DNA from: Candidatus Poribacteria bacterium
Lineage (GTDB): Bacteria; Poribacteria; WGA-4E; WGA-3G
NCBI GenBank assembly: GCA_965198235.1
Contig: OZ240248.1
Coordinates: 4,224,001 to 4,288,000 of the forward strand
DNA length: 64,000 bases
Direction: 5' to 3'
Numbering within the stretch: the first letter of the stretch is position 1; every line of letters starts with the position of its first letter. Below, piece by piece: positions 5,936 through 56,198 of the stretch. The notes beneath the pieces are model-generated. The model ran no database searches. It saw only the letters and a program-made list of their open reading frames with translations, and was not told the DNA's origin. The translations under genes and the position numbers were made by a program.

Positions 5936-6077
5936 CAGAGGCATTCAGTTTTAAGGTTTTTATCCGATTTACGCGAAGAGTCGCGAGCTGGGGGAAACGC
6001 CCAAGCAAAAACACTCACTCCTACAGGGGATCCGCTCAAACCGAAAATCTAAAATTTCGGAAAATCGAATGGCTCTG
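5936..6077. mobile_element. MITE family C, copy 1
   Basis: TIR CAGAGGCATTC...GAATGGCTCTG; 9-bp direct repeat CTAAGAGGA at 5927-5935 and 6078-6086. Confidence 0.8.
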
Positions 6078-6289
6078 CTAAGAGGACTTACGCCGTTCAG
6101 CGATCACACCTCGGTTCTATCTTTCTCTGATATTCGGTATTGGGTTCAATATCCAAGATGCAGGCGTTCAGAGATTCACGATTCAGGATTCACGTTAAAC
6201 CCATAATCACACCCACCAGCAAAAATGTCCCCTTAAATTTCGGATTTTACTATAATATGTCAACAAGGCATCCACAATGCTTGAAATAC

Positions 6290-6318
6290 TTGACAATTCT
6301 GTGAAAAACTTTTAGAAT
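6290..6318 (+). promoter_or_regulatory. Sigma70-type promoter for the ggt cluster
   Basis: TTGACA-N17-TAGAAT. Confidence 0.65.
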
Positions 6319-6353
6319 TCAGCGTATTAGTCTTCAGCAAAAGGAAAAAACTT

Positions 6354-7955
6354 GTGAATTTACACAAAAGGGAATATGGAACCGTCGCTGGACCACACCC
6401 CCGCACTGCCCAAGCGGGGTTTAAAATGCTCCTTGCAGGTGGAAACGCCGTTGATGCCGCTGTTGCCGCTGCCTTTGCGGAAGGGGTTGTGGAACCCTCA
6501 CATAACGGTATCGCGGGATACGGTGGCTGTGTGCTTATCTATCGCAAGAAAACGCAAGATGTCATTACCATAGACTACAACACCGCCGCACCGTCTGCTG
6601 CTTCTGAGGATATGTTTACGATTGAAGAGGCTCCCGACGCACCTGCCGGCTACCGGGTGCCGGGACGCGTAAACGTTCACGGACCGTTGTCTATAGGTGT
6701 ACCAGGGGTCGTCGCCGGCTTATGCTTGGCTTTAGAGGAGTTCGGAAGTCTGCCACTCACAGAAATCCTCCGGCCAGCCATCAATTCTGCCCGCTACGGC
6801 TATGCGCCGAACAGCGCGAACCGCGGTGGGATAGCAGGAAATGCCGAACGATGGAAACAGGACTTCCCTGAAACGGCACGTATCTTCCTCAAAAATGGTA
6901 GACCGCCGAAGAAAGGGGAAACACTCACCAATCCTGAACTCGCCCGAACCTTGGAGGCGGTCGCTGAAGGCGGACACCCCGCATTCTACGAAGGCACAAT
7001 TGCTGAAACAATCGCAAACCACATTCAGGAATTAGGTGGATGCCTAACCGTGAATGACCTCAAGAACTACCGCCCCTTCATCACAGAACCTTACAAAATT
7101 CAGTATCGAGGCTACTCGGTCTATACCGCACCGCTCGGAGCAGGTGGACTGACCACTTTACAGATGCTCCGATTGGTGGAGAGATTTGACGTGGCAACAA
7201 TGTCCGTCCCTGAAAGGTTCCACCTTTTCGCTGAAGCCATGAAAGTCTGCTGGCCCGAAAGACTCCGTCGATTTGGGGATCCAACTTTCATAGATATAGA
7301 TATCGAAACGGAACTCTCCGATAGTTTCACAGCGACCCTCAGCGAAAAACTGAATGCAGGACTTGAATCGCCGCAACCGGGGGAGGTCGTCTACTACGAA
7401 CCGATGAACTGCACAAGTCACATATCTACTGCGGACGCACAAGGAAATATGGTATCTCTAACACAAACGCACGGCGGTGGATTCGGTTCAATGGTGACAG
7501 TCCCGGGAACCGGTCTACTCTTCGGACACGGTGTCGGACGTTTCGATCCTCGACCGGGGATTGCGAACTCAGTCGGACCCGGCAAACGTCCACTTCACAA
7601 CATGGCTCCGTTTCTCGCCACGCGGGACGGTAAACCTTTCGCTACTTACGGTATCCCCGGCGGCAGAACTATCCCGAACAATCAGTTTAACATTAGCGTG
7701 AGTCTCTTCGATTTGCAGGTGCCGATGCAAAGCGCCCTGGACGCACCACGGCTTCATACAGACGGTGCTGAACCGATCCAAGTCGAACCTCGCGCAGGTG
7801 AAGAGACGCTCACAGCGTTACGAGAACTCGGACACGAAGTCACACCAAGTGCGGGCATCGGAGGTCCAGGACACGGTGTTCGCGTCTCGGACGATGGAAC
7901 TCATCATGACGGTGGCACGGATCCACGCGGTGAAGGCAAAGTGATGGCGAAATAA
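6354..7955 (+). CDS. ggt: Gamma-glutamyltransferase family protein
   Basis: GGNAVDAAVA, VEPSHNGIAGYG, TSHISTADAQGNMVSLTQT (catalytic Thr), PGKRP, GGTDPRGEG. Confidence 0.9.
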   Translation: MNLHKREYGTVAGPHPRTAQAGFKMLLAGGNAVDAAVAAAFAEGVVEPSHNGIAGYGGCVLIYRKKTQDVITIDYNTAAPSAASEDMFTIEEAPDAPAGYRVPGRVNVHGPLSIGVPGVVAGLCLALEEFGSLPLTEILRPAINSARYGYAPNSANRGGIAGNAERWKQDFPETARIFLKNGRPPKKGETLTNPELARTLEAVAEGGHPAFYEGTIAETIANHIQELGGCLTVNDLKNYRPFITEPYKIQYRGYSVYTAPLGAGGLTTLQMLRLVERFDVATMSVPERFHLFAEAMKVCWPERLRRFGDPTFIDIDIETELSDSFTATLSEKLNAGLESPQPGEVVYYEPMNCTSHISTADAQGNMVSLTQTHGGGFGSMVTVPGTGLLFGHGVGRFDPRPGIANSVGPGKRPLHNMAPFLATRDGKPFATYGIPGGRTIPNNQFNISVSLFDLQVPMQSALDAPRLHTDGAEPIQVEPRAGEETLTALRELGHEVTPSAGIGGPGHGVRVSDDGTHHDGGTDPRGEGKVMAK

Positions 7956-7969
7956 CAGGAGATCTGGCA

Positions 7970-8758
7970 ATGGCTTTCTGTAACGATGCACTCGCTGGAC
8001 TACATATCGTTATTTCCGGCGGGTGCGGAGCGATCGGACTTGGAATCGTCAAAAAATTAATGGCACACGGCGCAAACGTAACGGTGAACGACATCCTGTC
8101 GGATCAACAGGCAGCAGACCGACTCAGTCAGAACGGCATTGACATATCAAAAATAAACTATGTTAAGGCAGACCTGACCGACACCGACGAAACCGATATG
8201 CTGGTAAATACTGCTCGTAAACGGTTCGGACCTATCCACGTCGCTCTGTGTCATATCGGTATGGTGATTCCGAAACCGTTGTTGGAATACAACGCAGAAG
8301 AATGGGATGAGACCATGGCGGTCAATGTGCGGACAGCGTTCTTATTGGGCAGTGCCGCATCCCGTTCAATGCTTGAAGACGGCATTAAAGGACAACTCAT
8401 TTTTACGACATCTTGGGTCGCTGATGTGCCGTGGCCCGAGATTGGACCGTATAACGCAAGCAAGGCTGCAATGAAGCAGTTGATGCGTTCCTTTGCACGG
8501 GAACTCGCGGATAAAGGAATTCGCGCAAACGCAGTCGCACCCGGGATCGTCAGCGTTGGGCTTGCAAAACAACAGTGGGATACGGATCCAACCTACCGTG
8601 CTCGGGCACAGAAAGCAATCCCTCTTAGCGTTATGCAACCGCTTGATTCGGTGGCAGACGCCTTTCTATTTTTGTGCAGTACCGCTGCAGATTATATGAC
8701 TGGAACAGTGCTACTCGTAGACGGTGGATGTAGTCTGTATCCAATGGATGATGCCTAA
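7970..8758 (+). CDS. Short-chain dehydrogenase/reductase
   Basis: SGGCGAIG, YNASK, IRANAVAPG, VDGG. Confidence 0.9.
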   Translation: MAFCNDALAGLHIVISGGCGAIGLGIVKKLMAHGANVTVNDILSDQQAADRLSQNGIDISKINYVKADLTDTDETDMLVNTARKRFGPIHVALCHIGMVIPKPLLEYNAEEWDETMAVNVRTAFLLGSAASRSMLEDGIKGQLIFTTSWVADVPWPEIGPYNASKAAMKQLMRSFARELADKGIRANAVAPGIVSVGLAKQQWDTDPTYRARAQKAIPLSVMQPLDSVADAFLFLCSTAADYMTGTVLLVDGGCSLYPMDDA

Positions 8759-8959
8759 TTCGCCAAGGATAGACAAAACAAATTTTCGCGTGGTTTAGTA
8801 AGCAGGTTTCGGTGTCAGACGGTTCTAATCTATTTTGAAACCAAAGCCGGGGACCGAAACCTTTCAGAAGTAACGACATCAATCGGAAAATTCCAGCAGC
8901 GTTTTCCGATGCAATTTCAATCTCGTGTTTCGTAAAAGGCACGAAAAGACGGAGAAATT

Positions 8960-9286
8960 ATGTCACAATTTGTAAAAGCCGCGACAATCGACCAGATTCA
9001 ACCCGGTAAATGTATTGGTGTGAAAGTCGAAGGCGTTTTCATCGGCATCTACAACGTGAAGGGCGAGTATTACGCCATGAACAATATCTGCCCACACCTC
9101 GGTGGCGTTTTGAGTTACGGCTTTTTAGATAACAACTGTGTTACCTGCCCACTCCACATGTGGGAATTTAATGTAACAACAGGTGAGTGTGTGTGGCCAG
9201 GTGAGGAGAAATTACCCACCTATCCTGTCAAAGTGGAGGGCGAAGATATCTTTGTGAATGTGGAAACACCGCTCCACGCGAGTTAG
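8960..9286 (+). CDS. Rieske [2Fe-2S] ferredoxin
   Basis: CPHLGG...CPLHMWEF. Confidence 0.92.
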   Translation: MSQFVKAATIDQIQPGKCIGVKVEGVFIGIYNVKGEYYAMNNICPHLGGVLSYGFLDNNCVTCPLHMWEFNVTTGECVWPGEEKLPTYPVKVEGEDIFVNVETPLHAS

Positions 9287-9350
9287 CACCAGTTTTGGTA
9301 AAACGGCGCGGTCATCCGATCGCGCCCGTTGAAGAAGGAGAAAAAACATT

Positions 9351-10298
9351 ATGGCGTATCTGCTCACCGGTGGCATGGGGTGCATCGGTACTTACGTCAT
9401 CCGCGACCTATTGGCCGCCGGTGAAAAGGTAGTCGTTTACGATTTTGCTTATGACCTGACCATCCCCAAAATGGTTCTCACGGATGAACAACTTGAAGGG
9501 TTCACCTTCGTGCAGGGTGACATCACCGATCTGCCACACATCTTGCGCACTATCCAAGAATATGAGATTGATCGGGTTATTCATCTCGCCTCATGGCAAG
9601 TACCGGCGTGCAACGCGAATCCACCAGAGGCGTTAAAGGTGGTTTGCGAAGGCACGATCAACATATTGGAAGCAGCACGTATTTTCAACCTCAAACGTGT
9701 TGTATGGGCAAGCAGTGTTGCCGTCTTCGGAGCACCAGAGGATTACAACCACGAACAGATTCTCAACGATGCACCACACTATCCGAAGTTCATCTACGGT
9801 GCCTGTAAATCCCTCAACGAAAGATACGCAATGCACTATTTTGATGCATACGGTGTGGATTCGATTGGGCTTCGGTTTACTGCGGTCTATGGGGTCGGTA
9901 GAACCCGCGGCATGAGTTCATTCACGACGCAAATGATCGAAGCAGTGGCATTAGGTAAACCACACATCTGTCCGTTTGGTGACGACGCTGTGGATTGGCA
10001 GTATGTGGAAGATGTCTCTCGTTCGATTGTTGTCGCTTGCACCTGCCCAACCACGCAGACCCGCGTCTTCAATGTGAAGGGTGGTATTCGACCCGTCAAA
10101 GACGGCGTGTCATACCTCAAGACCTTGGTGCCAGATGCACAGATTACGCTGGAACCAGGGGTGTTTGGAATCTCGTGGGACTACGACGCGACATCTATCG
10201 CTGAAGAGATTGGATTTACGCCCGACTACACAATGGAGCAAGGGATTCTGAAAACGTTCAATCGTTTTCGGGAACGCGCAGGGTTGGCGCAGGTATAG
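9351..10298 (+). CDS. NAD-dependent epimerase/dehydratase (extended SDR)
   Basis: TGGMGCIG, GDITD, ASSVAVFG, YGACK. Confidence 0.88.
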   Translation: MAYLLTGGMGCIGTYVIRDLLAAGEKVVVYDFAYDLTIPKMVLTDEQLEGFTFVQGDITDLPHILRTIQEYEIDRVIHLASWQVPACNANPPEALKVVCEGTINILEAARIFNLKRVVWASSVAVFGAPEDYNHEQILNDAPHYPKFIYGACKSLNERYAMHYFDAYGVDSIGLRFTAVYGVGRTRGMSSFTTQMIEAVALGKPHICPFGDDAVDWQYVEDVSRSIVVACTCPTTQTRVFNVKGGIRPVKDGVSYLKTLVPDAQITLEPGVFGISWDYDATSIAEEIGFTPDYTMEQGILKTFNRFRERAGLAQV

Positions 10299-10358
10299 GG
10301 CAGAAAGCACTCCGACTATTAGAAAATGAAAGAACGATGATGTTGTCCAACCCTCAAC

Positions 10359-11048
10359 CTAATAGTACTTCTTCATTTGTGCCCAGGTGACAGCCAGCTT
10401 CCCGCGAGCATCAACAGACAGTACCTGTTCCCACGGGATATTTTTTCCTTTGGAATCGGCTTGATGTATATCATCAAAGTTCGGATGTCCCCACCCACCG
10501 CTATTGTTATCAACGACAACAATCTGGGCAGTCTTGCCTTTGAATTCAGAGACATCCCACTCTACCCGCGCCATCGTTTCGGTAGCCTTTCCTGTTGCTG
10601 TGCGTACGACTTTTCCTTTAATCTCAAGGTTAACACAACATGGAGCAGGGTCATCCTTCCATGGGTGATTGCCACCGCCCATGAGGAAATTCATTGTCTT
10701 TCCGATAATCGTGAACTCAATTGAGGTGAGGGTGCCTTGGGGTCCATCACCCTGCGTGGCACCTGGCTTCTGTCCGAGTTTTTTTCCTTTCTTCGGACCT
10801 TGGTACTTTTCGTATAAGCCTAACCACCAATCCCCTTGATGTTCAGAGGGCTGACCGCGGTTTCGCGCTGTCGAGTTATCTCCCCAAGTTGGCTGGAAAT
10901 CGAATCCAACATCCTCTTTTTCCCAATCCGTGAGGTCGCCGGTTTCAAAATCGTTGTTAAACGCTCGCCCTGAGGTGATGTTAACGGGCAGAACCAGCAA
11001 GATCAAGAGGACGGAAGGCATCATGAGCGAGAAAAATATTTTTTTCAT
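10359..11048 (-). CDS. Secreted beta-sandwich (carbohydrate-binding-like) protein with KLAxTW C-terminal motif
   Basis: Signal peptide; DFETGDL...FLMGGG...TATG...WDVSEFKGK...GGWGH resembles modules found with GH32/GH116 enzymes; ends VDARGKLAVTWAQMK. Confidence 0.65.
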   Translation of the reverse strand: MKKIFFSLMMPSVLLILLVLPVNITSGRAFNNDFETGDLTDWEKEDVGFDFQPTWGDNSTARNRGQPSEHQGDWWLGLYEKYQGPKKGKKLGQKPGATQGDGPQGTLTSIEFTIIGKTMNFLMGGGNHPWKDDPAPCCVNLEIKGKVVRTATGKATETMARVEWDVSEFKGKTAQIVVVDNNSGGWGHPNFDDIHQADSKGKNIPWEQVLSVDARGKLAVTWAQMKKYY

Positions 11049-11171
11049 GAGACGCGTCTCCTTCTATTTGTGAATAATTGTGTGCTACAGGTTATCTGGG
11101 CAGTAACTCGTGAACACACGTCTGAAAGCCGAACAACATCATCGCTTTTCATGATACACGCTTGCGTGTAT

Positions 11172-11284
11172 TAGTAAAATCCACAATTACCTTGACACTG
11201 TAGGGCGAGGATACAATCCTCGCCAGCGGGGATACAATGGGGCTGCTGTCATCTAAAATGTCAACATATTCCCGGATCTTACTA
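11172..11284. mobile_element. MITE-like family E element with internal REP hairpin
   Basis: TAGTAAAATCC...GGATCTTACTA; internal GTAGGGCGAGGATACAATCCTCGCC; solo ends GGATTTTACTA at 6242 and 22747. Confidence 0.55.
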
Positions 11285-11343
11285 TATAATACACTATTGT
11301 GAAAATAATGTCAAGGAAAATCGTGAATTTCGGCGCGAAACGA

Positions 11344-11943
11344 CTACAACAGGTCAACGGTTTGTCTCGCGAAAATCAATCCGATGACGCAGACAATCGC
11401 TGTCAAGGTCCGTTTTTCGCTCTTAATAGCGCGTGCGAAACAAAAATCGTGGGAAGATGGTTCGGGATAGGGATGAAATTGCGGAATAAATCGGGGCACC
11501 TGCTCTTGGTATGCTTGATAAACCGGACCGCAGGATTCCTTCAGATACGCCTCTTCTACGACAATAATCGGTAAGTATTGAAAGAAATAGCCAACAACCA
11601 ACACTGCTACCAGCCAATAGACATTCGCAACAAAACAAACGCCAAGACTGAGCAGAAAATTACCGAGATAGAGCGGATTGCGGACGTAACTATAGGGACC
11701 CGTTGTGACGAGATCTCGCGCGGCACCGAGGGTTCTTGCACGGGTGGATGCTCCCGCATATCCGACCGCCCATATCCTGAGAAATTCACCTACAGCAATG
11801 AACAGCACACCAACTCCTACTGTGTACCACACAGGTTCAGCAAAATAGAGTAGCACGAGGATAAAAGGGATAGGTGTGAAACTGCGGATTTTGAAGAAGA
11901 AGTTGCCAACCCGTAAGGTAGCATAGACTGTTAGTCTGTGCAT
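11344..11943 (-). CDS. Isoprenylcysteine carboxyl methyltransferase / phospholipid methyltransferase family membrane protein
   Basis: GEFLRIWAVGY, LVTTGPYSYVRNPLYLGNF, EEAYL...Y...VPRFIP; the upstream ORF extension lies in a repeat, so start set to 11943. Confidence 0.85.
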   Translation of the reverse strand: MHRLTVYATLRVGNFFFKIRSFTPIPFILVLLYFAEPVWYTVGVGVLFIAVGEFLRIWAVGYAGASTRARTLGAARDLVTTGPYSYVRNPLYLGNFLLSLGVCFVANVYWLVAVLVVGYFFQYLPIIVVEEAYLKESCGPVYQAYQEQVPRFIPQFHPYPEPSSHDFCFARAIKSEKRTLTAIVCVIGLIFARQTVDLL

Positions 11944-11957
11944 TTGTAAGCCAAAGC

Positions 11958-12050
11958 ATTTAGCCTGAAACGAAGTGGAAGGCGGATATACGGAAAAAGA
12001 TATGCCTGGCAGAACCCACCTCAACGAACCGCAAGGAATAATTAAAAAAC
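11958..12050 (+). repeat. Family F dispersed repeat
   Basis: TAGCCTGAAACGAAGTGGAAGGCGGA...GAACCGCAAGGAATAATTAAAAAAC; homologs at 27435, 36096, 57526 and a partial copy at 27584. Confidence 0.7.
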
Positions 12051-12051
12051 G

Positions 12052-13113
12052 CTATTTCGGTGTACGCCAGATCATGATACCCCCAACAATAGCGTACAGG
12101 ATGTTCGCTCCCCAACAAGCGAGAAACGGATGAAGCTTACCACTTTCACTCAATCCTTCAAGAATCGCGAAGGAGAGTGCCCAATAGAGAAAAGAGAGGA
12201 AGAAAGCCATCACCAACCCCGCAAAGAAACCTGCTCTACCAAAACGGATAGCGACAGGCGCGCCAAGCATAATAACAACGACAGCTGCGAATGGATACGC
12301 TGTTTTGTGATACAACTTTACCTGCTCTTTGCGCGAAATCTGTCCCGCTTCCTGTTTATAGGCGATCTGTTGACGGAGTTCTTCGATTGTCATCGCCCTT
12401 GGATCTTTTTCACTCCCAATAAAACGGGCAGGATCTTCGTGTCGTTCAATCGCATGTGTATCAAACGCTTCATAACTCACCTCGACCCCGTTTTCAAAGT
12501 GGCGAATGTACCCATCAGTCAATTGCCACTGGGTAGGTGTCCACGCCGCTGACTTCGCGAACGTCACACGAGCGAGTTTCCCCTCTGTATCATATTCATA
12601 GATAGTGAGTTGTTGGATTTTGCGAGCGTCCAAGGCGATCCGCTGTGAGTAAAAGATACGGTCGCTTTTGCCTTTGAAGACGATGTTCCTGCCGCGACGC
12701 GGTCTAACCTTATTTTGTAAGAGATGCGCTTCATGAAAGGCAGGCGACGCGACCCGATTATAAAAAAGCGCGAAGAGTCCACAAATAACGAGCGTTACAA
12801 TCAAAACAGGAACGAGAAGCCGGTAAACACTTAGACCACCCGCCTTCATAGCAGTGAACTCGTTGCTTTGTACCATCCTACCCAGTACAAAAAAGATAGC
12901 CACAAATGCAGCAACGGGTACCACCTCCATAATCCGACGTGGTGCTTGGAAGAGCACAATTTTAACAGCCGTCATATAAGCGACATCATCATCAAACTTT
13001 TTGATGTCCTTATCCAGCAAACGCACGATAATAATCAAGGTGATAAAGAACAAAAGCCCGACAAAAAAGGCTTTGAGGTATTCACGAAGCAGGTACCGAT
13101 CTAAAATATTCAA
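12052..13113 (-). CDS. lptG: LPS export ABC transporter permease LptG
   Basis: ILDRYLLREY, NEFTAMKAGGLS, AYPFAAVVVIMLGAP, LACWGANI; downstream of its paralog; TTG start inferred. Confidence 0.82.
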   Translation of the reverse strand: MNILDRYLLREYLKAFFVGLLFFITLIIIVRLLDKDIKKFDDDVAYMTAVKIVLFQAPRRIMEVVPVAAFVAIFFVLGRMVQSNEFTAMKAGGLSVYRLLVPVLIVTLVICGLFALFYNRVASPAFHEAHLLQNKVRPRRGRNIVFKGKSDRIFYSQRIALDARKIQQLTIYEYDTEGKLARVTFAKSAAWTPTQWQLTDGYIRHFENGVEVSYEAFDTHAIERHEDPARFIGSEKDPRAMTIEELRQQIAYKQEAGQISRKEQVKLYHKTAYPFAAVVVIMLGAPVAIRFGRAGFFAGLVMAFFLSFLYWALSFAILEGLSESGKLHPFLACWGANILYAIVGGIMIWRTPK

Positions 13114-13189
13114 GACACGCGTCCTATATAAAATATTTCCAATTTTTACAGGGTTGAAAACTGCGTCTGCATACGGCGGGAGGTCTCGG

Positions 13190-14392: not shown

Positions 14393-14607
14393 ATTTTTGA
14401 TGGAGCCGTAGATGTTTCACGATAGACGCGCTTTGCGGACATATCAATCAACAGATTTCAATAATTATTGGTTTCACTATAAACTGATACCATTCTTTTT
14501 TTGTTAGTTGATTTGTGCTGAAAAAACCTTCATAATTTAATACATTAGTGGTAGCACACCCTGATTTTAATTTGAAATTTTGCTATGAAAGATGTTATCA
14601 TACCCAC

Positions 14608-15087: not shown

Positions 15088-15108
15088 CCGTGTAAACGTA
15101 AACACAAC

Positions 15109-16173: not shown

Positions 16174-16231
16174 TTACTTCTCCTTTTTCAGTGGCTATCG
16201 GAAACCATCAGTTTGCTTCGCAGTGAGAATC

Positions 16232-16338: not shown

Positions 16339-16340
16339 AC

Positions 16341-22564: not shown

Positions 22565-22708
22565 CAGAGCCATTCAGTTTTCGGTTTTTGCCGGTTTTAG
22601 AGAAAGATTCGCGACCGGGAGGTCGCTCCTACAGAAAAGGGAGTGTTTTTGCTTGGGTGTTTCCCCAGGAATCGGAGATCCCTCCTACAGGAGAATTGAA
22701 TGACTCTG
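22565..22708. mobile_element. MITE family C, copy 2
   Basis: TIR CAGAGCCATTC...GAATGACTCTG; 9-bp direct repeat GTTAATTTG at 22556-22564 and 22709-22717; two CTCCTACAG-ending REP hairpins inside. Confidence 0.82.
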
Positions 22709-22781
22709 GTTAATTTGTCAGAGATATTCAATTTTAAGAAATTATCGGATTTTACTATAAATGTTCCGAAGGAAGACGACC

Positions 22782-22864
22782 TTTCACGGAGGCTTCACGG
22801 AGGTTTTTACCGACGTAGGCGTGACGTGGGTTTCTAAGATGCAATATGCTGTCTCTCCGTGAAA
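22782..22864. repeat. Family D element, copy 2 (83 bp)
   Basis: Same length, ends and core as 17652-17734. Confidence 0.75.
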
Positions 22865-22916
22865 AAACGAATGTGAAAATATAATTAACGTATCGTATCA
22901 ATGTTTTCACTATAAC

Positions 22917-22945
22917 TTGACAAAGTGTGCATGACCTGTTATACT
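22917..22945 (+). promoter_or_regulatory. Sigma70-type promoter
   Basis: TTGACA-N17-TATACT with extended -10 TG. Confidence 0.7.
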
Positions 22946-23016
22946 AACCGCTGTTTGACTTACGGCGCAGACGGACCATATTGGAGCATATTCTATGGCG
23001 ACAGGAGGAATACTTT

Positions 23017-27241: not shown

Positions 27242-27434
27242 CTGTATCCTCCATAATATTTACAAGCAAGGGTCGCTTGTTTTGTTGTTTCTGTACAGTA
27301 GACAACTTCGTCTACCTCTTCAATTTTTGTAGGGACAGGTACTTGTGTCCTACTAACCGTTTCCTGAAAGAGAGCCTAATTCCCAGAAGATATTGATTCA
27401 GCATTTTAGCAGAATCTCATAATAGTATCAAGCG

Positions 27435-27551
27435 TTTTTTAATTTTACCTTGCGGTTAAAGAGCGTTCGCTTAGCAATGGACATGCGTTTCTTAAATCCG
27501 TCCTCATAGCGCAAGCCTATAGAGGCTTGCGGGACAATGTTACGGACTACA
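27435..27551 (-). repeat. Family F repeat with an extra hairpin inserted in its REP loop
   Basis: TTTTTTAATTTTACCTTGCGGTT...ATCCGTCCTC[ATAGCGCAAGCCTATAGAGGCTTGCGGG]ACAATGTTACGGACTAC, compared with the uninterrupted copy at 57526. Confidence 0.65.
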
Positions 27552-27743
27552 TGCTCTTCTTAATCCCGCTTCTAAACCCTCACTTTTAATTTTACCTTGC
27601 GGTTAAGTGGTAAATAGAAAAAAAGTGGAACGTCCACAAAACGTGAAGTAAAACTCAGGGATATAAGTGAAACTTCGTGTGGACGTCCCTATTAGGTTAT
27701 CAGTCCCCGTCCTGTGTGGATCGAAGACTAAACCGAAACATAT

Positions 27744-35406: not shown

Positions 35407-36096
35407 TTAATTAGCTTGCTCAACCTGTTCCATAAGCCACTCCACTTTACTCGGATCTTTTATACCCTTTGATGCTTCAACACCAGAACAGAGGTCGATG
35501 CCGTGGGGACGAATTGTCTCAATAGCGGCTTTGACATTCTCCGGACGAATCCCACCTGCGAAGAAAACGGGCAGCGGACTCTCTGCAATGAGCTCAGCAG
35601 CGACATTCCAATCACAGGTTTTTCCTGTACCGCCGTATCTCGGTTTCTCAAGACTTACATCAACGCTATCAAACAGCAGGAAATTCGCGCCAGCATCTCG
35701 GTACGCCAGCATCTCTTCTCGAACAGCCGGGACATCCACATTTTTAGGACTTCCCGCCGGCAAATAGACAGACTTCCAGAACTCACATGCGCTTGTGCGC
35801 TTAAGTTCCTCAACCTGCTGTGGAGACTCCTGTCCAAGGAGTTGAACGGCAAATGGCTGAACCTGCGAGACTATTTCTTGGATGTCGGACGTTGAGCGGT
35901 TATAGAGTAGAATTACGGTAGGAATAGGACTCTCGCTTGCAATTTCGGCGGCTTGAGTCGCGGAGCGTGTCCGTTCAGATACGGCAACATCAACCAACAC
36001 CCCGATGTAATCCGCTCCCGCATCAGCAGCAAGTCGAGCATCATGGATAGAGGTAGTGCCACAGATTTTGACACTGCAGCCGGATTCTTTAGACAT
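35407..36096 (-). CDS. trpF: Phosphoribosylanthranilate isomerase
   Basis: VKICGTT, GADYIG, LLFDS...GGTGKTCDW, FAGGIRPENV, DLCSGVE. Confidence 0.92.
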   Translation of the reverse strand: MSKESGCSVKICGTTSIHDARLAADAGADYIGVLVDVAVSERTRSATQAAEIASESPIPTVILLYNRSTSDIQEIVSQVQPFAVQLLGQESPQQVEELKRTSACEFWKSVYLPAGSPKNVDVPAVREEMLAYRDAGANFLLFDSVDVSLEKPRYGGTGKTCDWNVAAELIAESPLPVFFAGGIRPENVKAAIETIRPHGIDLCSGVEASKGIKDPSKVEWLMEQVEQAN

Positions 36097-36181
36097 TTTT
36101 TAATTATTCCTTGCGGTTCAGTGACGTGGTTTGAAATGTGGCGGTTTTTCCTTGGAGTCGCCCTCCATTTCATTACGGGCT
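36096..36181 (-). repeat. Family F repeat abutting the trpF start codon
   Basis: Minus strand GCCCGTAATGAAATGGAGGGCG...GAACCGCAAGGAATAATTAAAAA-ATG. Confidence 0.7.
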
Positions 36182-44639: not shown

Positions 44640-44712
<73 letters not shown>

Positions 44713-44758: not shown

Positions 44759-44781
44759 AAAAATTTACTTTTTTTGGAAAA

Positions 44782-45618: not shown

Positions 45619-45619
45619 G

Positions 45620-45774
45620 TAGGACTTACGCAATTTTTCTATGAGCACCTCCGTATGACGCGCCGCTGGCGAGGTGTTTTTGCTGGGGGTTTTTGCTTGG
45701 GGTTTTTGATAGGGTGTTTCCTCTGCGGATTTCCCCTAGAAACCTCGCCAGCAATGGATGTTGCGTAAGCCCTG
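45620..45774. mobile_element. MITE family A, copy 3 (155 bp, with internal micro-repeat expansion)
   Basis: TAGGACTTACGCA/TGCGTAAGCCCTG; 5-bp direct repeat TTAAG. Confidence 0.85.
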
Positions 45775-46002
45775 TTAAGTTTACGCCAACACACGCATTA
45801 TCACCTACACAAAAAATATGACTTTTTTTCACGGACGTGATATACTGAGTCCGAACGTCCTGTTAGCGGATGCGCACGGTGCGGCGGATTTCCGCTTTCA
45901 AGCCCGTGGCGGTCCGTATAACGGTTAATGGCAAACACTACATTTGAATTTCAGCGGTTTCTGGAAAAATCCCAACTCAAATTAACAATGGAGGAGATAA
46001 CA

Positions 46003-46785: not shown

Positions 46786-47006
46786 GTATCTGGACATTAG
46801 TTTTTGTGTTAGGTGTCCCGGAGGGTTTTGGAACCCCTTCGGGACTTCCACAAGAGCGATCTAATACTAATTACGGTGGTCAAGGAAAAATTGGAATTTG
46901 AATTGACGACCAAAAACCTTTATACAAAAAATTGTGCTTCAAAAAATGTGATGACAGAAAGAAACCATGAACACTATTTTACAAAAAGGAGTAATCAGTA
47001 AAAAAG

Positions 47007-48404: not shown

Positions 48405-48409
48405 AATCT

Positions 48410-50079: not shown

Positions 50080-50123
50080 GGCTGAAACATTTCGCTGTAA
50101 ATCTGCAATAGTCAAGGTAACAC

Positions 50124-50396
50124 ATGTATATCAGCAGATTGGAATGGGACGAATACCGCATTGAACATATTGCTCGGCATAACATAGAACCCGATGAAGT
50201 GTGGGATGTCTGTGAAGATCCACACCATTTAGCCCGTCGTCACGGACAAAATCGATATCTTGTTTACGGACAAACAGCAGACGGACGATACTTGTTTGTT
50301 GTCTTGGAGAGTATCGGAGGAACTATGTATAAACCTATTACCGCGCGAAATATGACTGTCCACGAAAAACGAAACTTTAGGAGGCAGAAAAAATGA
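50124..50396 (+). CDS. BrnT-family type II toxin
   Basis: LEWDE...HIARHNI...E, GQTADGRYLFVV, PITARNM...EKR. Confidence 0.85.
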   Translation: MYISRLEWDEYRIEHIARHNIEPDEVWDVCEDPHHLARRHGQNRYLVYGQTADGRYLFVVLESIGGTMYKPITARNMTVHEKRNFRRQKK

Positions 50397-50656
50397 AAGA
50401 GTTGCACGTACCCGAGTTTTCAACTTATGAAGAGGAAGCTGATTTCTGGGATAACTTAGACACCGCAGATTTCATGGAAGACGATGACCAGTGGTTTCGC
50501 TTTGAAACACCACACAAACGGGGGATTCGTGTCGCAATTCTTCCCGAAATCGCTGAAGAACTCAGGCAAAAAGCACAAGCGCAGGGTGTATCAATTGAAA
50601 CTTTAGTGAATACCCTTTTGATCGATCACGTACGGGAATCAACACACCCGAATTAG
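50393..50656 (+). CDS. BrnA/CopG-type antitoxin
   Basis: PEFSTYEEEADFWD; C-terminal ribbon-helix-helix; ATGA overlap with the toxin. Confidence 0.85.
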   Translation: MKELHVPEFSTYEEEADFWDNLDTADFMEDDDQWFRFETPHKRGIRVAILPEIAEELRQKAQAQGVSIETLVNTLLIDHVRESTHPN

Positions 50657-52087
50657 ATGAACCGTATCTTTAAAAACACGTCCTCCCTTTTTAGTGCCCA
50701 CCTTATCGGCCGCCTCGGCTCACTTGTGATAACGATTTGGCTCATGCCTCGTTATTTTACGGAAAGTGAACTCGGCGGCTATTTTGTTGCGATTGCCCTC
50801 ACGAACCTTATTGCGACTCTCACAGAATTGGGGTTACAAAATCCACTCATCCGAGAGATGACGTTGCATCTGCAACAGACCCGGCACTACCTCGGCAACG
50901 CCCTCATCGTTCGCGTCATCCTCTCCATTATCGCATACGGCATCATGATTATCAGCGGGATATTCCTCTATTCCCCGGTAATCGTAAAGATGATAATTTT
51001 TTTAGGATTGGCAGAGATTGCCAATTCTTTGGCACAATTGTATCGATGCGTCTTCCGCGCGCATGAGGAGATGAAATATGAGGCTTTAACTGTAATAGCC
51101 GAGCGGGGTGCATTTCTTGTCATCGGCGGTGGCGCGATTCTACGCGGATACGGACTCGTGCCTGTCTGTCAGGTGATGCTGGTAGCAAGTTGTATTAACC
51201 TGATTTTAAGCGTTGGACTCACCCGACTCCGCTTCACTTCGCTCCGTTTCCAACCGAGTCGAGAGATCGTGAAAGTGCTGATGCAACAGGCATTGCCATT
51301 CGCGATTGGTAACCTTTTCAATCTGCTCTATTTTCGCGTTGATGCAATTATGTTGTCAAAACTGAGCTCAGAAGGGATAGATGCGAATACATGGTACGGT
51401 TTGGCGTATACGATTGTCAACGCCTTCACGATTCTACCGGGAGCGTTCATGATGGGTGCGATGTTCCCCGTTCTATCCCGCGCATGGGAAAGAGAAAAAG
51501 GGAGATTTCCCGGAGCATATACGTTCGGTATGCGATGGATGGTGCTGAGCGGATTTCCGTTAGCGGTTGGACTCTCGACACTATCTCCGGAAATTACGGC
51601 GGTGTTGTTTCCAACCTATACAGCGAATGAAGTAGCCAAAGTGTCAACAGCACTGCAATGGCTCAGTTGGGCGGGCGGACTCATCTTCGTGACGACAGCA
51701 GTGTTGGCGGTGCTACGAGCGACAGACAAACGCCGCGCTTTCTCAGTCCTCATGGGAACAACCGCACTCCTGAATATCTGCCTGAATCTATACCTAATCC
51801 CGCGTTTCAGCCATGCTGGCGCGGCGATAGCGATGGTTATAAGCGAGGTATTTCTGCTCATTTTTGGGATCGGCTACATTTCAAGAAACATTATCAAATT
51901 CCGGGAAACCCCTCCTATATTCCCCACCGTTTTGAAAGCATCCATCCTCTCTGCTCTGATGGGCATCGGTTTGGTCATGTTAAAGGGTTCCTTCTCCATT
52001 TGGGTGCTGATTCCGTTGGCAGTGCTGTTTTACGGTGGAGGGATCACCATTCTGGGGGAATTCCGGGAAAGACTTAGGTTCGATTAA
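50657..52087 (+). CDS. Wzx-like polysaccharide flippase (MOP superfamily)
   Basis: RIFKNTS, ELGL, LYFRVDAIML, LNLYLIPRFSHAGAAIAMVISE; many TM segments. Confidence 0.88.
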   Translation: MNRIFKNTSSLFSAHLIGRLGSLVITIWLMPRYFTESELGGYFVAIALTNLIATLTELGLQNPLIREMTLHLQQTRHYLGNALIVRVILSIIAYGIMIISGIFLYSPVIVKMIIFLGLAEIANSLAQLYRCVFRAHEEMKYEALTVIAERGAFLVIGGGAILRGYGLVPVCQVMLVASCINLILSVGLTRLRFTSLRFQPSREIVKVLMQQALPFAIGNLFNLLYFRVDAIMLSKLSSEGIDANTWYGLAYTIVNAFTILPGAFMMGAMFPVLSRAWEREKGRFPGAYTFGMRWMVLSGFPLAVGLSTLSPEITAVLFPTYTANEVAKVSTALQWLSWAGGLIFVTTAVLAVLRATDKRRAFSVLMGTTALLNICLNLYLIPRFSHAGAAIAMVISEVFLLIFGIGYISRNIIKFRETPPIFPTVLKASILSALMGIGLVMLKGSFSIWVLIPLAVLFYGGGITILGEFRERLRFD

Positions 52088-52093
52088 TAGCCC

Positions 52094-55000
52094 TTATTTC
52101 ACTATCACCACTCGTTGTGTTGCGGCAAAGTCTCCCGCCACGAATTGTAAAAAGTAGACACCGCTTGAAACAGGTTCGCCTGTTTCATTCCGTCCATCCC
52201 AATAGGCGGCCCGTTCCCGTGTCAGATAATATCCGACAGGCTTGAACCCAACAGAAATTGTTCGGACCAAATGACCACTGACATCGTAGATTTTCATGCT
52301 CACATCTGCCGTTTCCGCCAACTGGTACGGTATCCATGTCTCAGGATTGAAGGGGTTGGGGTAATTCGGCAGTAATTTCGTTTCTGTCACGTCTTGATTG
52401 GCGTTTGCCAGCCAAGAATGTAAAAACCGAATCGCCATCTCAACACTCTGCGATTTCTCTGGGACGGCTTCTAATTCATTCAGGGCACGCCGGACGACAA
52501 TAACATCTCCAGGTGAGGACGGTGTACCTTTGACAATGTCCATCAGAGAAGGTGCAGCGGAGACTACCTTTTCACCGAGACGTTCCGCAACAAACACGAG
52601 ATCAAGGATATTCACCTGCCCATCTTTGTTGACATCTGTCCTCGGATTGGACGGTAGCTTTTGTCCAAGATTCTGTCCCACAAGAATTATATCAAGAACG
52701 TTGACAATTCCGTCCTGATTGACATCCCCACTGGATTTCACACCTTTTGCTGTAATAAACAAATCCGCCCAATGTGCCCAGTCCCAATAGTTATTTCCAC
52801 CGGGGTCGGTCCCCAATTCCAGTAATACGGTCTCACCTGCATGCTCAGAAAGGAGGATTTGTGCGTCTGTCCATCCTGGAGCCTTTGTGAAGTGTTCAAA
52901 TCGGTTTTGTCCATTTAGAAGCACCGCAAAAGAGACACCGTCACTACCAGCATTCTCATCCAACAATCCCATCGAAAAAGAGAACATTATTTCTTCTGCT
53001 TGAGGCAGAGAAAGTGAGAATTGGAGAACGGACTGACCATCTTCTGGGGGGTGGGCATTAATGGACTTCTTTTCCACACCACCTACAATTCCATGGCTCC
53101 GCTCGCCTGAACCGTAAACATTCCCAAGTCGAAAGACACTATCAAACTGGAGACCAACAATAAATTCGGCATCTCTTAGATTGTAGGGGGTGCCTACTCG
53201 TTGGGCAGGGCCAAATAAAAAGAGAATTTGTGTAGGTAGTTTCGTATTGAGAACATATTGCTCTTGCCCTATATGCCTCACTGTATCAGGGAAGCTCCTT
53301 ATCGGTTCATTGGGAAGGTAAAATCCTACTTTCGTAAACGCATCCGATGGTTCAGAGACGATTTTAGGTTCTCCCCACCTTGCCCAATCCCATCCAGTAT
53401 CTTTTTTGGGGCCTGGGTTCGTAGTAAGGCGGAGTTTGACATCTTCACCTCGGTAGGTTGTCAAATCCAGATGAATTTGCTCCCACTTCTGTTCTGTGTA
53501 ATGTTGACGAAAAATTTCATCGTCTTGGACAGAGACGATGAAAGTTACACCATCAGAATTTTCAGAACCCTCAGCTAACCCAATATCGAATTCCAAACGG
53601 ATGTGAGGACTATCCGGTAGCGAAAGGTTCCACTCCCCAAATGTATCACCCCTGATACCTTGCCAAGGAGGGTGTGCATCAATCGCGGACTTACGAACAC
53701 CAGCGATGGAAACCTCCGTTTTCTGAAAAGTCGCCCCTTTTTGTCGTGGCAATTCCTTACCCTTGTGAACGATGCCCGTCCCTAAAAGATGAATTTCTGA
53801 TAATAAATCAATTTCGTGAGAGATACTCATCCTTTCGAGTCGAAATAAAACTGCATTTTCTGTCACACGCGATCCCGTCACAGAAACACCATCTGGCAAG
53901 GCGTTGATATGCGCTTGAGAGAAATCGCGCGGAGTGTCGCTCAAAAAATAAGATTCCTCAGGATGCAATCCGAGTAGTGTCGTTTCGTTGTAGGCGCGCC
54001 AATGTGGTATATTCCGCTGGGTCCTCACCTGCGTCACACCTAAAACGCGTTCATACCCCAGACTTTCTTCAGGTAGAACAAACGTAGCCCCCGTTTTTGT
54101 TTTTTTCAGTGCTGCAATTTCGCCGTTTTCTCCAACATATTGAAATAAAGTGTTAGGTGTCCAGTCGGATTCAAAGTCAGGTTTGAATCCTCGTTGCTGC
54201 CATGTTCGCGCAATTGAAAGTAACTCCTGTGTCCTCACCCGTTCAGGCCCCAAGTCAGCTACTGACGAGAGCCGAAGCGTTGGTAAAACGCCCCAATTCT
54301 CATACGCATCCAAATATTCTTGGTAAAGTGGTGGACTTCCATCTGGATTAGGTAATCCCAGATAGCCGTAGGGTAATGTATAAGGAGAGAATAAGAAGAC
54401 ACTAATCGGGTGTGGGGTTCCCCGTGGCGTGGGGTCCCATAGTGGTGGGAGTTTCCAACGTTGCGCGAAACTTTCACGGAAGAAGGTGACTTCATGAAGG
54501 TGCTCACCACTAAAAATAACGCCTGGCATTGCTTCCGCCAATTCCTCATGTGCTAACACGTTACCTTGACCGGCATTTAATCTTTCAATCAGTCCGTTTG
54601 CATCATTAATGACAAAGTGACTAACATCCAAGTGGAACGCATCCACTTTGTACTTTTCCCATACGTTTTTCAGCTGCTGGAGAAGGATTTTTCTAAACGT
54701 AGAATTTGCAAGATTAATAAAGGCATGACGTCCAGCAGACTCTGTTCGTTCCCACCACCATCCAACAAGATTTCCGTTCCATGGGTCCCGAAATTGGAAT
54801 TCTTGAAATTCCGCGTAGAGGGGATGATAGGTTGAGACTCCAACGAGATTTGCGTGAGGCATCACTCGAAATCCGTGTTGGTGAGCAGCTTCAACAAAAC
54901 GACCAAACTCAGGTTTCGCTGTATAATCGGGATAATTAACATCATAATCATCCCTACGCCACTGATTCAAATACAGCAAGGTTTTTGCGGGATCAACCTG

Positions 55001-55918
55001 CTCCGCTAACTTATCTAATATACCGACATCCAAACCAGGATCGATATAGGTAACGACCAGACCAATCTCTCCAACCCATGCTGGCATCTCATCCAATCGC
55101 CAGGGTTTGAAAGTCTGTTCCATCCACTCCCGATACTGCCTCGCAGGCACACACCAATCGCCGCTATATGTATTGAGTCGCCATACAACAGATTTCGCAG
55201 AGGTAAGTGCGTCGAAAGGTGCTTGGTTTTGTGTCTCAAAACCGAGTGCAAAACTCTCTATATATTTTTCATAGTGGAGGACTTTGAATTGGAAGGTTTC
55301 ATCTGCTCCCCGAACGGAAAAACCACCCTGTTCCCCTTGAAGAATCGCGAGTTGTACTTCCCAACTACCGGGATAATTGAAACTTCTGGAGGTAAATGGG
55401 GACATCGTATTAATGATTTGCCCACCCTCTGCCGGAAGAATAAGGTCCAGATTCCTGACATTTAGATTCCCACACCCCCACTGAATGCCATAGACACCTG
55501 CTGTGTCGGAAGTCCCTTCCTGTTCAATCAGTAGATCGCCTGATCTCGCGTCAATTCCTATGAGCAGGCGAATCCGGTTTTGTCCCTGACGAAACACGAT
55601 TTCTGCTTTCAGCGGCGCGACTTTCCTTGCCTGTGTTAGCGTCGCTTGGTCTGTCCAGACAGGTCCAACATTTCTCCTCAACAATCCACTGCGTCCGCTG
55701 ATACCTGAAGGCACACCGCCGACAGAAGGGAGGGTATAGGCTTCTTCTGTTAGTTTATTATAGAGTTGGGTGATAACACCGTCCATGAACTGGACTTGAT
55801 AGGTATCGGTTTCGACAAAAACGTTATTGTCAACGACCTTAATCTCGGCAGATTGCACGACTTGAGAACAAAACAAGCAGAGTATTCCACTCAGAACGGC
55901 TATGCCTAAACGGCGCAT
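52094..55918 (-). CDS. Large secreted glycoside hydrolase-like protein (DUF6259-like barrel, NPCBM-like modules, dockerin, FlgD-Ig/T9SS-like C-terminal domain)
   Basis: WRRDDYDVNYPDY, DAFHLD, two AHPP...SDGV.F modules, GDVNQDGIVNVLDI/DVNKDGQVNILDL, LLPNYPNPFNPETWIPYQL...YWDGRNETGEPVSSGVYF. Confidence 0.78.
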   Translation of the reverse strand: MRRLGIAVLSGILCLFCSQVVQSAEIKVVDNNVFVETDTYQVQFMDGVITQLYNKLTEEAYTLPSVGGVPSGISGRSGLLRRNVGPVWTDQATLTQARKVAPLKAEIVFRQGQNRIRLLIGIDARSGDLLIEQEGTSDTAGVYGIQWGCGNLNVRNLDLILPAEGGQIINTMSPFTSRSFNYPGSWEVQLAILQGEQGGFSVRGADETFQFKVLHYEKYIESFALGFETQNQAPFDALTSAKSVVWRLNTYSGDWCVPARQYREWMEQTFKPWRLDEMPAWVGEIGLVVTYIDPGLDVGILDKLAEQVDPAKTLLYLNQWRRDDYDVNYPDYTAKPEFGRFVEAAHQHGFRVMPHANLVGVSTYHPLYAEFQEFQFRDPWNGNLVGWWWERTESAGRHAFINLANSTFRKILLQQLKNVWEKYKVDAFHLDVSHFVINDANGLIERLNAGQGNVLAHEELAEAMPGVIFSGEHLHEVTFFRESFAQRWKLPPLWDPTPRGTPHPISVFLFSPYTLPYGYLGLPNPDGSPPLYQEYLDAYENWGVLPTLRLSSVADLGPERVRTQELLSIARTWQQRGFKPDFESDWTPNTLFQYVGENGEIAALKKTKTGATFVLPEESLGYERVLGVTQVRTQRNIPHWRAYNETTLLGLHPEESYFLSDTPRDFSQAHINALPDGVSVTGSRVTENAVLFRLERMSISHEIDLLSEIHLLGTGIVHKGKELPRQKGATFQKTEVSIAGVRKSAIDAHPPWQGIRGDTFGEWNLSLPDSPHIRLEFDIGLAEGSENSDGVTFIVSVQDDEIFRQHYTEQKWEQIHLDLTTYRGEDVKLRLTTNPGPKKDTGWDWARWGEPKIVSEPSDAFTKVGFYLPNEPIRSFPDTVRHIGQEQYVLNTKLPTQILFLFGPAQRVGTPYNLRDAEFIVGLQFDSVFRLGNVYGSGERSHGIVGGVEKKSINAHPPEDGQSVLQFSLSLPQAEEIMFSFSMGLLDENAGSDGVSFAVLLNGQNRFEHFTKAPGWTDAQILLSEHAGETVLLELGTDPGGNNYWDWAHWADLFITAKGVKSSGDVNQDGIVNVLDIILVGQNLGQKLPSNPRTDVNKDGQVNILDLVFVAERLGEKVVSAAPSLMDIVKGTPSSPGDVIVVRRALNELEAVPEKSQSVEMAIRFLHSWLANANQDVTETKLLPNYPNPFNPETWIPYQLAETADVSMKIYDVSGHLVRTISVGFKPVGYYLTRERAAYWDGRNETGEPVSSGVYFLQFVAGDFAATQRVVIVK

Positions 55919-55944
55919 GCAATTTTCCTCCTAAAACTTATATG

Positions 55945-56198
55945 ACCTAAGCACATAGCACTCCGCTGGAGTGCAAGAGATTGTGGACCCCCGGTTTCTA
56001 TAGACATATCACCCCGCTGGGGTGAGAAAAACACCTGAAAAACCTTATTGAAATCCGCAGAAATCCGCAGAAATCCGCAGAAACACCCAAGCAATACGCA
56101 GAAATACCCAAGCAAAAACACCCCTATCAATACGCAGAAATACCCAAGCAAAAACACCCCAAGCAAAAACACCAAAATTTGTTAGTAGCAACTTGGGT
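55945..56198. mobile_element. MITE family B, copy 3, with tandem micro-repeat array
   Basis: ACCTAAG...GCAACTTGGGT|TA; CATAGCACTCCGCTGGAGTGC and CTATAGACATATCACCCCGCTGGGGTG hairpins; array at 56050-56173. Confidence 0.65.
56050..56173 (+). repeat. Composite tandem array of AAATCCGCAG and CCCAAGCAAAAACAC units
   Basis: 3x AAATCCGCAG followed by four CCCAAGC-containing units interleaved with AATACGCAG and CCCTATC. Confidence 0.9.

Follow-up and report, generated by a model that had tools for sequence, protein, structure and literature searches.

Can a sequence of 21 nt settle at new places in a bacterial genome, and what would write it there? The question is raised by a 64,000-nt stretch of DNA from a Candidatus Poribacteria bacterium (assembly GCA_965198235.1, contig OZ240248.1, positions 4,224,001 to 4,288,000; here called the window), in which a preliminary description noticed the same short unit at four places, twice singly and twice in mosaic arrays. 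It suggested that the units are added on a template, for example by a reverse transcriptase (RT) or a transposase acting at nicked hairpins. Our analysis gives good support to a real, dispersing micro-repeat. The unit has a recognizable grammar, is restricted to one genus, is present or absent at otherwise equivalent sites, replaces target bases and inserts in frame into genes; in the source genome no RT domain was matched, and the unit does not co-occur with RAYTs (transposases associated with repetitive extragenic palindromes [REPs]). Our preferred but tentative reading is a non-autonomous micro-repeat resembling the small dispersed repeats (SDRs) of cyanobacteria, which would be copied by template switching primed on microhomology in its A-runs, resized by slippage and carried along by its hosts, REPs and miniature inverted-repeat transposable elements (MITEs).

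A micro-repeat at four sites in the window

The micro-repeat unit is 21 nt long (GAAACG followed by a 15-mer core at site 1), or about 25 nt with its linker. In its basic layout, a variable purine-rich 5′ linker, (Y)TGRRG, is followed by GAAAYR, the core CCC(AAG or TAT)CAA and AAAC(AC). The unit is A/C-rich on one strand, is neither self-complementary nor palindromic, and forms no hairpin by itself. When up to 2 mismatches are allowed, the window contains the 15-mer 7 times where 0.21 occurrences are expected; in none of 100 shuffles was this number reached. The coordinates and sequences given in the preliminary description hold for all four sites (Table 1), and both arrays indeed contain AAATCCGCAG and CCCTATCAA in differing copy number (one of each at site 3; three and one, respectively, at site 4).

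The four hosts had been assigned to three MITE families, which is about right, with the addition that the hosts of sites 1 and 2 have common terminal inverted repeats. At site 1 (5994-6014) the host is a GTAG-type REP in degenerate form, with GCGAGC as its left arm and ...TCACTCCTACAG on the right, in a MITE bounded by CAGAGGCATTCAG and GAATGGCTCTG, and at site 2 (22643-22663) the unit is placed between REP modules of a MITE with the same terminal repeats. Two of the sites had been described as lying in the loop of a REP hairpin. This is true of site 3, whose hairpin has an 11-bp stem in the centroid structure and belongs to a host family with two empty paralogs (loop of 2-3 nt). Site 1 can be placed in a REP only by way of comparison with relatives and other copies, which point to the type GCGAGC...GCTCGC-TCCTACAG; in the window the right arm is degenerate and the stretch folds no better than its shuffles (z = 0.26). 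The REP hairpins of the site 4 host are of the type that flanks the three RAYT-like genes of the genome, and this host has 3 empty paralogs.

Scale and grammar in the genome

The genome from which the window comes (G000) has 5.17 Mb in two contigs, a G+C content of 48% and a completeness of 96.3%. It holds 146 exact copies of the 15-mer core and 275 with up to 1 mismatch, at 205 loci. The sub-units exceed expectation 15- to >1000-fold: AAATCCGCAG occurs 156 times against ~10 expected, and CCCTATCAAAAAC and CCCAAGCAAAAAC occur 112 and 256 times, each against ~0.2 expected on both strands. A seed-and-merge definition yielded 279 arrays of 15-161 nt, together 9,598 nt, all from one small vocabulary, and the recurrence of that vocabulary as mosaics, first seen at two window sites, extends to the whole genome. 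The arrays occupy at least a dozen unrelated immediate contexts. For 36 of the 279 both 120-nt flanks are unique in the genome; most of these still lie in a short REP-like hairpin, and some lie in open reading frames (ORFs). Most arrays are intergenic (230 of 279), and 49 are inside the ORFs of a crude call that covers ~86% of the genome.

The arrays are polar. A purine-rich linker is followed by 0 to 5 copies of AAATCCGCAG (or its CCACAG variant), then by cores CCC(AAG or TAT)CAA with their spacers, and finally by AAAC or AAACAC. There is one core in 161 arrays and there are 2-7 in 96; the 190 core-to-core steps use AAAC (88), AAACAC (47) and TACGCAGAAATA (28), the remainder being rarer or composite. 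The combinations of cores and spacers give rise to periods of 10, 13, 15 and 21 nt, with an A-run at every sub-unit boundary. Of the 251 arrays that could be parsed, 240 have G immediately 5′ of the first AAA (position -1). Purines occupy positions -2 and -3, G takes position -4 in 185 arrays, and T or C predominates at positions -5 and -6; frequent linkers are CTGAAG, TTGAAG, CTGGGG, TCGAAG, TTGGGG and TAGGGG. No fixed word occupies positions -10 to -5, TTAC preceding the insert in some REP loops only, and no constant tetranucleotide lies left of the insert. On the 3′ side the first three bases are mostly C (190, 184 and 163 of the 251).

Long arrays may represent a series or nest of copies of one ~25-nt unit or, alternatively, duplications between A-runs. 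The blocks TACGCAG-AAATA-core, whose layout matches linker-AAACA-core, can likewise be read as serial self-insertions, and tandem duplication explains them too. The A-run boundaries suit templated addition from elsewhere and local slippage or deletion alike. Nesting is also seen in inverse orientation, in one case as an inverted unit within a forward unit and in another as an inverted array within a forward array.

The polarity of the arrays and their reiterated short blocks are what repeated realignment on one short template would be expected to produce, and RNA-templated addition at nicked loops by an RT, in the manner of a telomerase or retron, would provide such a template. We consider this explanation highly improbable. 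The order of the blocks is not fixed (58 steps from TAT to AAG, 35 from AAG to TAT); the preliminary description had asked whether sub-unit order follows one template. The RT domain PF00078, moreover, had no match in G000, in a search that did match 3 of 14 control genomes, so that the suggested role of an RT as writer of the units found no support in this 96%-complete genome.

Filled and empty copies of the same host

Both 120-nt flanks are repeated elsewhere in the genome for 71 of the 279 arrays, which gives 21 multi-copy host families; 12 of the 21 have empty as well as filled copies. The preliminary description had considered that all occurrences might be fragments of one longer element. 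The many unrelated contexts, together with the two states in 12 paralogous families and at orthologous sites, mark the unit as an entity of its own.

The junctions are clearest in REPs of the form GGNGNGGTT-loop-AACCNCNCC. Their empty copies are perfect hairpins with loops of 2-4 nt, and the filled ones read ...TTAC + T(T)AGRGG + units + AAAAAC + ACC..., with 1-2 loop bases replaced. The purine linker is missing from empty REP loops, that is, it arrives with the insert. In MITE family 1 the empty form CATC-A-ACTCGTG corresponds to the filled form CATC-GAAG...AAAAAC-ACTCGTG, and in another host repeat a loop of 8-9 nt is exchanged for a unit of 21-22 nt. Over the 12 families and a coding site described below (coding site A), between 1 and 10 target bases are overwritten on insertion, and apart from a single 5-nt case the target is not regularly duplicated. 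By our reading of the alignments, AAAC or AAC is present at the junction of the empty site in 7-8 of the 12 families. We rejected the unit itself as a MITE, as it has no inverted ends and target bases are replaced, not duplicated, save in the 5-nt case.

MITE family 1 has 29 copies, of which 14 are empty, 14 are filled in five array states and 1 carries an unrelated 53-nt insert. The fills between the host anchors measure 26 nt (4 copies), 36 nt (1), 49 nt (6), 72 nt (2) and 82 nt (1). The identical fills in several copies indicate that hosts carry arrays along when they are copied, and the differing fills that arrays change. A tree of 28 flank pairs, which left out the copy with the unrelated insert, has 1 well-supported branch among 25 inner branches, too low a resolution for events to be counted. 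On it the empty and filled states do not cluster: they require 8 changes against a shuffled mean of 9.5, and a value as low was obtained in 112 of 500 shuffles.

Orthologous sites and insertions into genes

Six of the 279 array loci of G000 were followed to other species of the genus. The nearest syntenic relative at window site 4 (G006) has the same host repeat with flanks of ~95% identity and an array of 30 nt against 124 nt in G000, and G002 has no repeat at this place. The site 3 spacer differs in repeat load in each of five relatives, and a GTAG-type REP beside the gene downstream of it has no insert in G014, a single unit in G018 and a short array in G024. In relatives the spacers of sites 1 and 2 are shorter or contain other repeats. 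The site 2 spacer, 464 nt long in G000, measures 96-115 nt in three relatives; that of a fourth has 899 nt and is unrelated in sequence. The MITE is missing from the orthologous spacer in the 4 relatives in which both anchors were found. Intergenic spacers are, more generally, hot spots of repeat turnover (window 22574-23010 and 45620-45800; orthologous spacers L161-L170), and the same spacer can carry entirely different REP and MITE loads in five related species.

Two insertions into genes can be followed across species. Coding site A lies within a 972-codon ORF (G000 contig 1, near 988,547). It is empty, in a 29- or 32-nt form, at 26 of 29 loci of the genus and in G000, and filled, in a 44-nt form, in 3 of 29 species (G018, G024 and G006) and at a locus from the collection scan. 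Because the filled state is present in a minority of species, it is the derived one. The gain is 15 nt, in frame, and ~7-10 target bases were replaced; the empty form already has the CTGG that stands left of the unit. By identity at the locus the three carriers are not mutually closest, so that the site was hit more than once, or the insert was lost cleanly, or it was moved by recombination. At coding site B (ORF 4,767,872-4,769,993) two species have an empty-like state (G004, G014), one has one unit (G018), four have decayed units (G012, G024, G006, G054) and G000 has an array of 60 nt, against 21 nt for the single unit; all five comparable length differences (12, 39, 42, 57 and 63 nt) are multiples of 3. 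The units are tolerated as peptide inserts rich in lysine, proline and glutamine. Another long ORF (2,907,858-2,911,350, minus strand, G000 contig 1) contains an empty GTAG-type REP hairpin near 2,910,170, and its ortholog L098 carries a 21-nt unit with a length difference of 9 nt.

Would all this require any mobility of the unit? One ancestral, slippage-prone hairpin loop could have been spread by the copying of REPs and MITEs and by recombination in the stems, with the empty copies being older or having lost the loop. The identical arrays in several copies of one MITE, such as the six with the same 49-nt fill, fit this explanation, as do the orthologous length changes, which slippage would produce, and many host REPs have a common inner stem, GGTT...AACC, through which loops could conceivably be exchanged by short homology. 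We nevertheless judge it unlikely. It does not sit well with the dozen or more unrelated contexts, the 36 arrays with unique flanks or the derived unit in a coding sequence that has no REP at the target, and the empty REPs are not scars but perfect 9-bp hairpins with loops of 2-3 nt. Slippage alone, as in a simple mini- or microsatellite, accounts for copy changes in place (30 versus 124 nt and 21 versus 60 nt) and leaves the arrival at unrelated loci unexplained.

Restriction to one genus

Each of the 24 genomes sampled from the genus has the exact 15-mer, in 2 to 100 copies, and none of 16 genomes from seven further genera of the order has it. When up to 1 mismatch was allowed, 0-4 matches per genome were obtained in 69 genomes that represent 11 other genera, the level of a reversed control pattern; the sister genus, sampled with 23 genomes, is likewise at background, with 1-3 exact copies in three of them. 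When one genome per bacterial or archaeal species was searched with a degenerate 21-mer, all of the matches listed (at least 118) carried a Poribacteria title (Candidatus or uncultured) or were untitled metagenome bins. The micro-repeat is therefore an amplification specific to one genus of sponge-associated Poribacteria. Single units are also found on two IMG/VR contigs classed as viral, L233 and L234 (78.7 kb and 15.0 kb), which could stem from phages or prophages of Poribacteria or be host DNA that was misclassified.

Its presence in dozens of independently assembled genomes rules out that the micro-repeat is an assembly artefact, a concern of the preliminary description. Assembled contigs from four sequencing runs end at arrays or jump across them. 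Contig joints at 56015-56176 carry no information on length variation at this locus, since they come from empty paralogs of the host repeat and have short sides. Contigs from an RNA library hold array sequence joined to other loci, which may derive from carried-over DNA and not from transcripts.

Most copies of the unit are without a single substitution, also when species that diverge by 10-25% in their coding DNA are compared. Such constancy could mean that the unit is kept for a function, for example as a DNA or RNA binding site for a host protein on hairpin loops, and is spread by selection instead of selfish copying; the high share of intergenic arrays in a genome that is mostly coding fits this as well. 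Against a function speak the lack of a clear orientation bias to neighboring genes (arrays between tandem genes are co-oriented in 70 cases and anti-oriented in 96), the wide range of copy numbers within the genus and the tolerance of units in frame inside proteins. The four sites in the window have no Rfam match, the sole Rfam match in the window being a tRNA gene (44640-44712, minus strand). Selection would also leave the arrival at new sites unexplained, and we regard this explanation as very unlikely.

Candidate enzymes

G000 has six Y1_Tnp genes (Table 1). Three are of the IS200/IS605 type with a tnpB-like neighbor; two of these tnpA genes are nearly identical, each with the start of a tnpB-like ORF directly downstream. 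The other three are RAYT-like and have REP hairpins on their flanks, with TTCTATAGACATAG ahead of the hairpins. One of them has inverted copies of the site 4 host element on both sides, with empty loops. A HUH tyrosine transposase that cuts single-stranded hairpin DNA, either RAYT-like or an IS200/IS605-type TnpA, could hence be imagined to mobilize the unit. The presence of these genes, the tie between the site 4 host and the RAYT-like genes, the insertion after TTAC in the loops of several REP families and a nested unit with exact 21-nt ends and a 5-nt duplication are all in line with this.

The distribution of the RAYT-like protein is not. Searched with one RAYT-like protein at E<=1e-10, 18 of the 24 genomes of the genus gave a match, as did 9 of the 16 genomes of other genera that do not have the micro-repeat. 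G024, which is 94% complete in one contig and has 100 copies of the 15-mer, gave no match at this threshold. The repeats can thus be kept without a RAYT, and the presence of a RAYT does not entail that of the repeats; the RAYT that had been proposed as the writer is missing from 6 of the 24 genomes that carry the unit. The absence of a constant tetranucleotide left of the insert, the lack of a hairpin in the unit and the replacement of target bases, which differs from peel-and-paste transposition, also argue against a transposase of this kind, and we find it quite unlikely as the engine. An element dependent on IS200/IS605 was rejected for related reasons: no fixed tetra- or pentanucleotide lies 5′ of the insert, TTAC being found in some REP loops only, and a hairpin of its own is lacking.

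How the unit may be copied

We return to copying by the host's own replication or repair as the reading that we tentatively prefer; the way of copying and the part of hairpins as places where forks stall are what we infer. An existing unit or array would be written into a new site when a nascent strand switches template during replication or repair. The switch would be primed on very short A-rich microhomology (AAAC or AAC) and would occur most frequently where a fork meets a hairpin, as in the loops of REPs and MITEs, with a few target bases overwritten. Once in place, an array could grow or shrink by slippage or by repeated realignment between the three A-runs of the unit, which would generate the 10-, 13-, 15- and 21-nt periods. 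Filled REPs and MITEs would in addition spread the units passively when they are copied themselves.

Several observations weigh against this proposal. No direct trace of a template switch, such as flanks of the donor carried along, was found. One nested insertion consists of exactly one 21-nt unit, inverted and bordered by a 5-nt duplication, and looks like the product of a staggered-cut transposition, not of a template switch. The identity of the unit across species hints at a conserved master template or a recognizing protein, with either of which it would be easier to explain, and neither was found. The linker does not follow one rule, being imported at REP loops and partly pre-existing at coding site A. 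Some of the within-family variation could stem from deletions in arrays that were longer in the ancestor. Hairpin loops, finally, are a preferred place by tendency and not by rule. The duplex energy of the 22-nt flanks (-9.17 kcal/mol) does not differ from that of mismatched flank pairs (-9.22 kcal/mol); in a stricter test for perfect stems, which took the place of the energy test, a stem of >=7 bp adjoins 31 of 279 arrays and 21 of 3,000 random places, which speaks against hairpins as a strict requirement.

Comparison with known repeats

The closest known kind is the SDRs of the Nostocaceae, a match made on features and not on sequence. SDR1 to SDR8 of Nostoc punctiforme and its relatives were reportedly described by Elhai et al. 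in 2008 (Genome Res 18:1484); SDR4 to SDR6 are said to have a common hairpin, and heptamer repeats reportedly surround the cyanobacterial SDRs. The likeness had been drawn in the preliminary description, and it is apt. Both kinds have units of ~21-27 nt that are too short to encode a protein, hundreds of dispersed copies, residence in MITEs and other repeats, and copies nested within copies. Both are confined to one coherent group of related genomes, have filled and empty sites that point to recent movement, and are without an encoded protein or an assigned engine. As is reported for SDRs, tandem heptamers also stand near some hosts in relatives, e.g., at L035 and L081. Tandem heptamer or hexamer repeats (GGTTGTC, CTGAAAA and CAGCCAT types) flank some unit hosts at these two loci, at L056, L101 and L108, and near 1,325,900 of G000 contig 1.

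The differences are equally plain. The micro-repeat is found in Poribacteria instead of cyanobacteria, is strand-asymmetric and without a hairpin of its own, unlike what is reported of SDR4 to SDR6, forms polar tandem mosaics, prefers hairpin loops and has documented in-frame insertions into genes. HIP1 is present in G000 at 139 copies per strand against 79 expected and is not enriched as it is in cyanobacteria. According to PMC5861425, SDR-like repeats were not found outside the Nostocaceae among the HIP1-rich cyanobacteria examined there; the SDRs of Nostoc are also treated in PMC3116915. None of the titles found among papers citing Elhai et al. 2008 has non-cyanobacterial SDRs as its subject, as far as these citing papers were available, and literature on Poribacteria combined with REP, MITE or dispersed repeats yielded no description of the repeats reported here.

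The hosts connect the micro-repeat to REPs and REPINs (palindromic REPs or their doublets), which are treated together with RAYTs and GTAG-tagged REPs in the available sections of PMC3733652 and PMC3116915. They are REP-like hairpins, several with a GTAG-type tag (...TCCTACAG), and RAYT-like genes flanked by REPs are present in G000 as well. GTAG REP families can have alternative larger loops of up to 27 bp and, in what is available of PMC3733652, these are known without a common inserted unit. In contrast to a REP or REPIN, a palindrome of 20-40 nt or a doublet, the unit is not palindromic, although its hosts are such palindromes; it resides in several unrelated REP families and outside REPs, and it does not co-occur with RAYTs.

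Modular mosaic repeats include the bacterial interspersed mosaic elements (BIMEs) of E. coli, the BOX elements of Streptococcus pneumoniae, with modules of 45-60 nt, and the neisserial intergenic mosaic elements (NIMEs) of Neisseria. As in these, a few short modules recur at many intergenic sites in combinations that differ in number and order. We know of no BIME, BOX or NIME modules that seed singly into other repeats or genes. The in-frame insertion into protein-coding genes, tolerated as extra peptide segments, resembles that of the Rickettsia palindromic elements, which are palindromes of 100-150 bp, unlike the 21-nt, non-palindromic unit; they are mentioned in the available text of PMC3733652.

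Other features of the window and the genome

Another family of dispersed repeats, TTTTAATT..CCTTGCGGTT, adjoins gene ends in the window (4900-4922, 12013-12053, 27433-27471, 27584-27606, 36094-36132 and 57524-57562), and elsewhere in the genome it itself hosts the micro-repeat. A CRISPR-like array (clustered regularly interspaced short palindromic repeats) of ~56 regularly spaced repeats ending in ATTGAAAC lies at 2,733,887-2,738,066 of G000 contig 1. CRISPR was rejected as the identity of the micro-repeat: the repeat of this array, the sole one of its kind in G000, is unrelated and has only GAAAC in common with the unit. The cumulative GC skew of G000 shows no clean V shape.

Table 1. Positions of the micro-repeat sites, their hosts and the Y1_Tnp genes
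Feature	Sequence	Position	Strand	Composition or remark
Site 1, single 21-nt unit	Window	5994..6014	+	GAAACG + 15-mer core; purine linker TGGGG 5′ of it
Site 2, single 21-nt unit	Window	22643..22663	-	Linker CTGGG on its own strand
Site 3, mosaic array	Window	45674..45733	-	Linker TAGGGG, one AAATCCGCAG, one CCCTATCAA core, two CCC(A/C)AGCAA cores; in hairpin loop
Site 3, host hairpin	Window	45665..45752	unstranded	Arms GCTGGCGAGGT (45665-45675) and ACCTCGCCAGC (45742-45752) around the array
Site 4, mosaic array	Window	56050..56173	+	124 nt, no array in the window being longer; 3 x AAATCCGCAG followed by cores with TACGCAGAAATA, AAACAC and AAAC-type spacers
Site 4, host	Window	55958..56049	+	Two REP hairpins (55958-55974, 56009-56025), then a conserved 24-nt spacer up to the insertion point
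RAYT-like Y1 transposase gene	G000 contig 1	606,794-607,286	-	~160 codons
RAYT-like Y1 transposase gene	G000 contig 1	1,898,762-1,899,242	+	~160 codons
RAYT-like Y1 transposase gene	G000 contig 1	3,853,633-3,854,113	-	~160 codons
IS200/IS605-type tnpA	G000 contig 1	119,825-120,245	-	
IS200/IS605-type tnpA	G000 contig 1	4,381,475-4,381,925	-	
IS200/IS605-type tnpA	G000 contig 1	4,792,771-4,793,221	-	

Implications

The micro-repeat is among the smallest elements that behave as mobile DNA, at the lower limit of size. To our knowledge the SDRs of the Nostocaceae are the only described parallel, and we know of no engine that has been assigned to them. The Poribacteria genus provides a second case, with many complete long-read genomes, with clear filled and empty sites in paralogs and orthologs and with insertions into genes in which the distribution among species tells the direction of change; given these properties, comparative genomics can test how a 21-nt sequence comes to be copied elsewhere. 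As for the engine, an RT is unlikely and a RAYT lacks support. It is possible, if doubtful, that the micro-repeat represents a second, independent lineage of ultra-small mobile DNA outside the cyanobacteria, which would do without an RT or a dedicated transposase; host replication or repair would, by reiterative copying primed on microhomology, place its units in hairpin loops and genes and would also build the arrays.

For those who work with uncultivated sponge symbionts, the arrays have practical consequences, in that they break short-read assemblies and cause in-frame variation in the length of proteins. Should the host machinery indeed do the copying, it would offer bacterial genomes a general route by which to grow new short repeats and peptide linkers.

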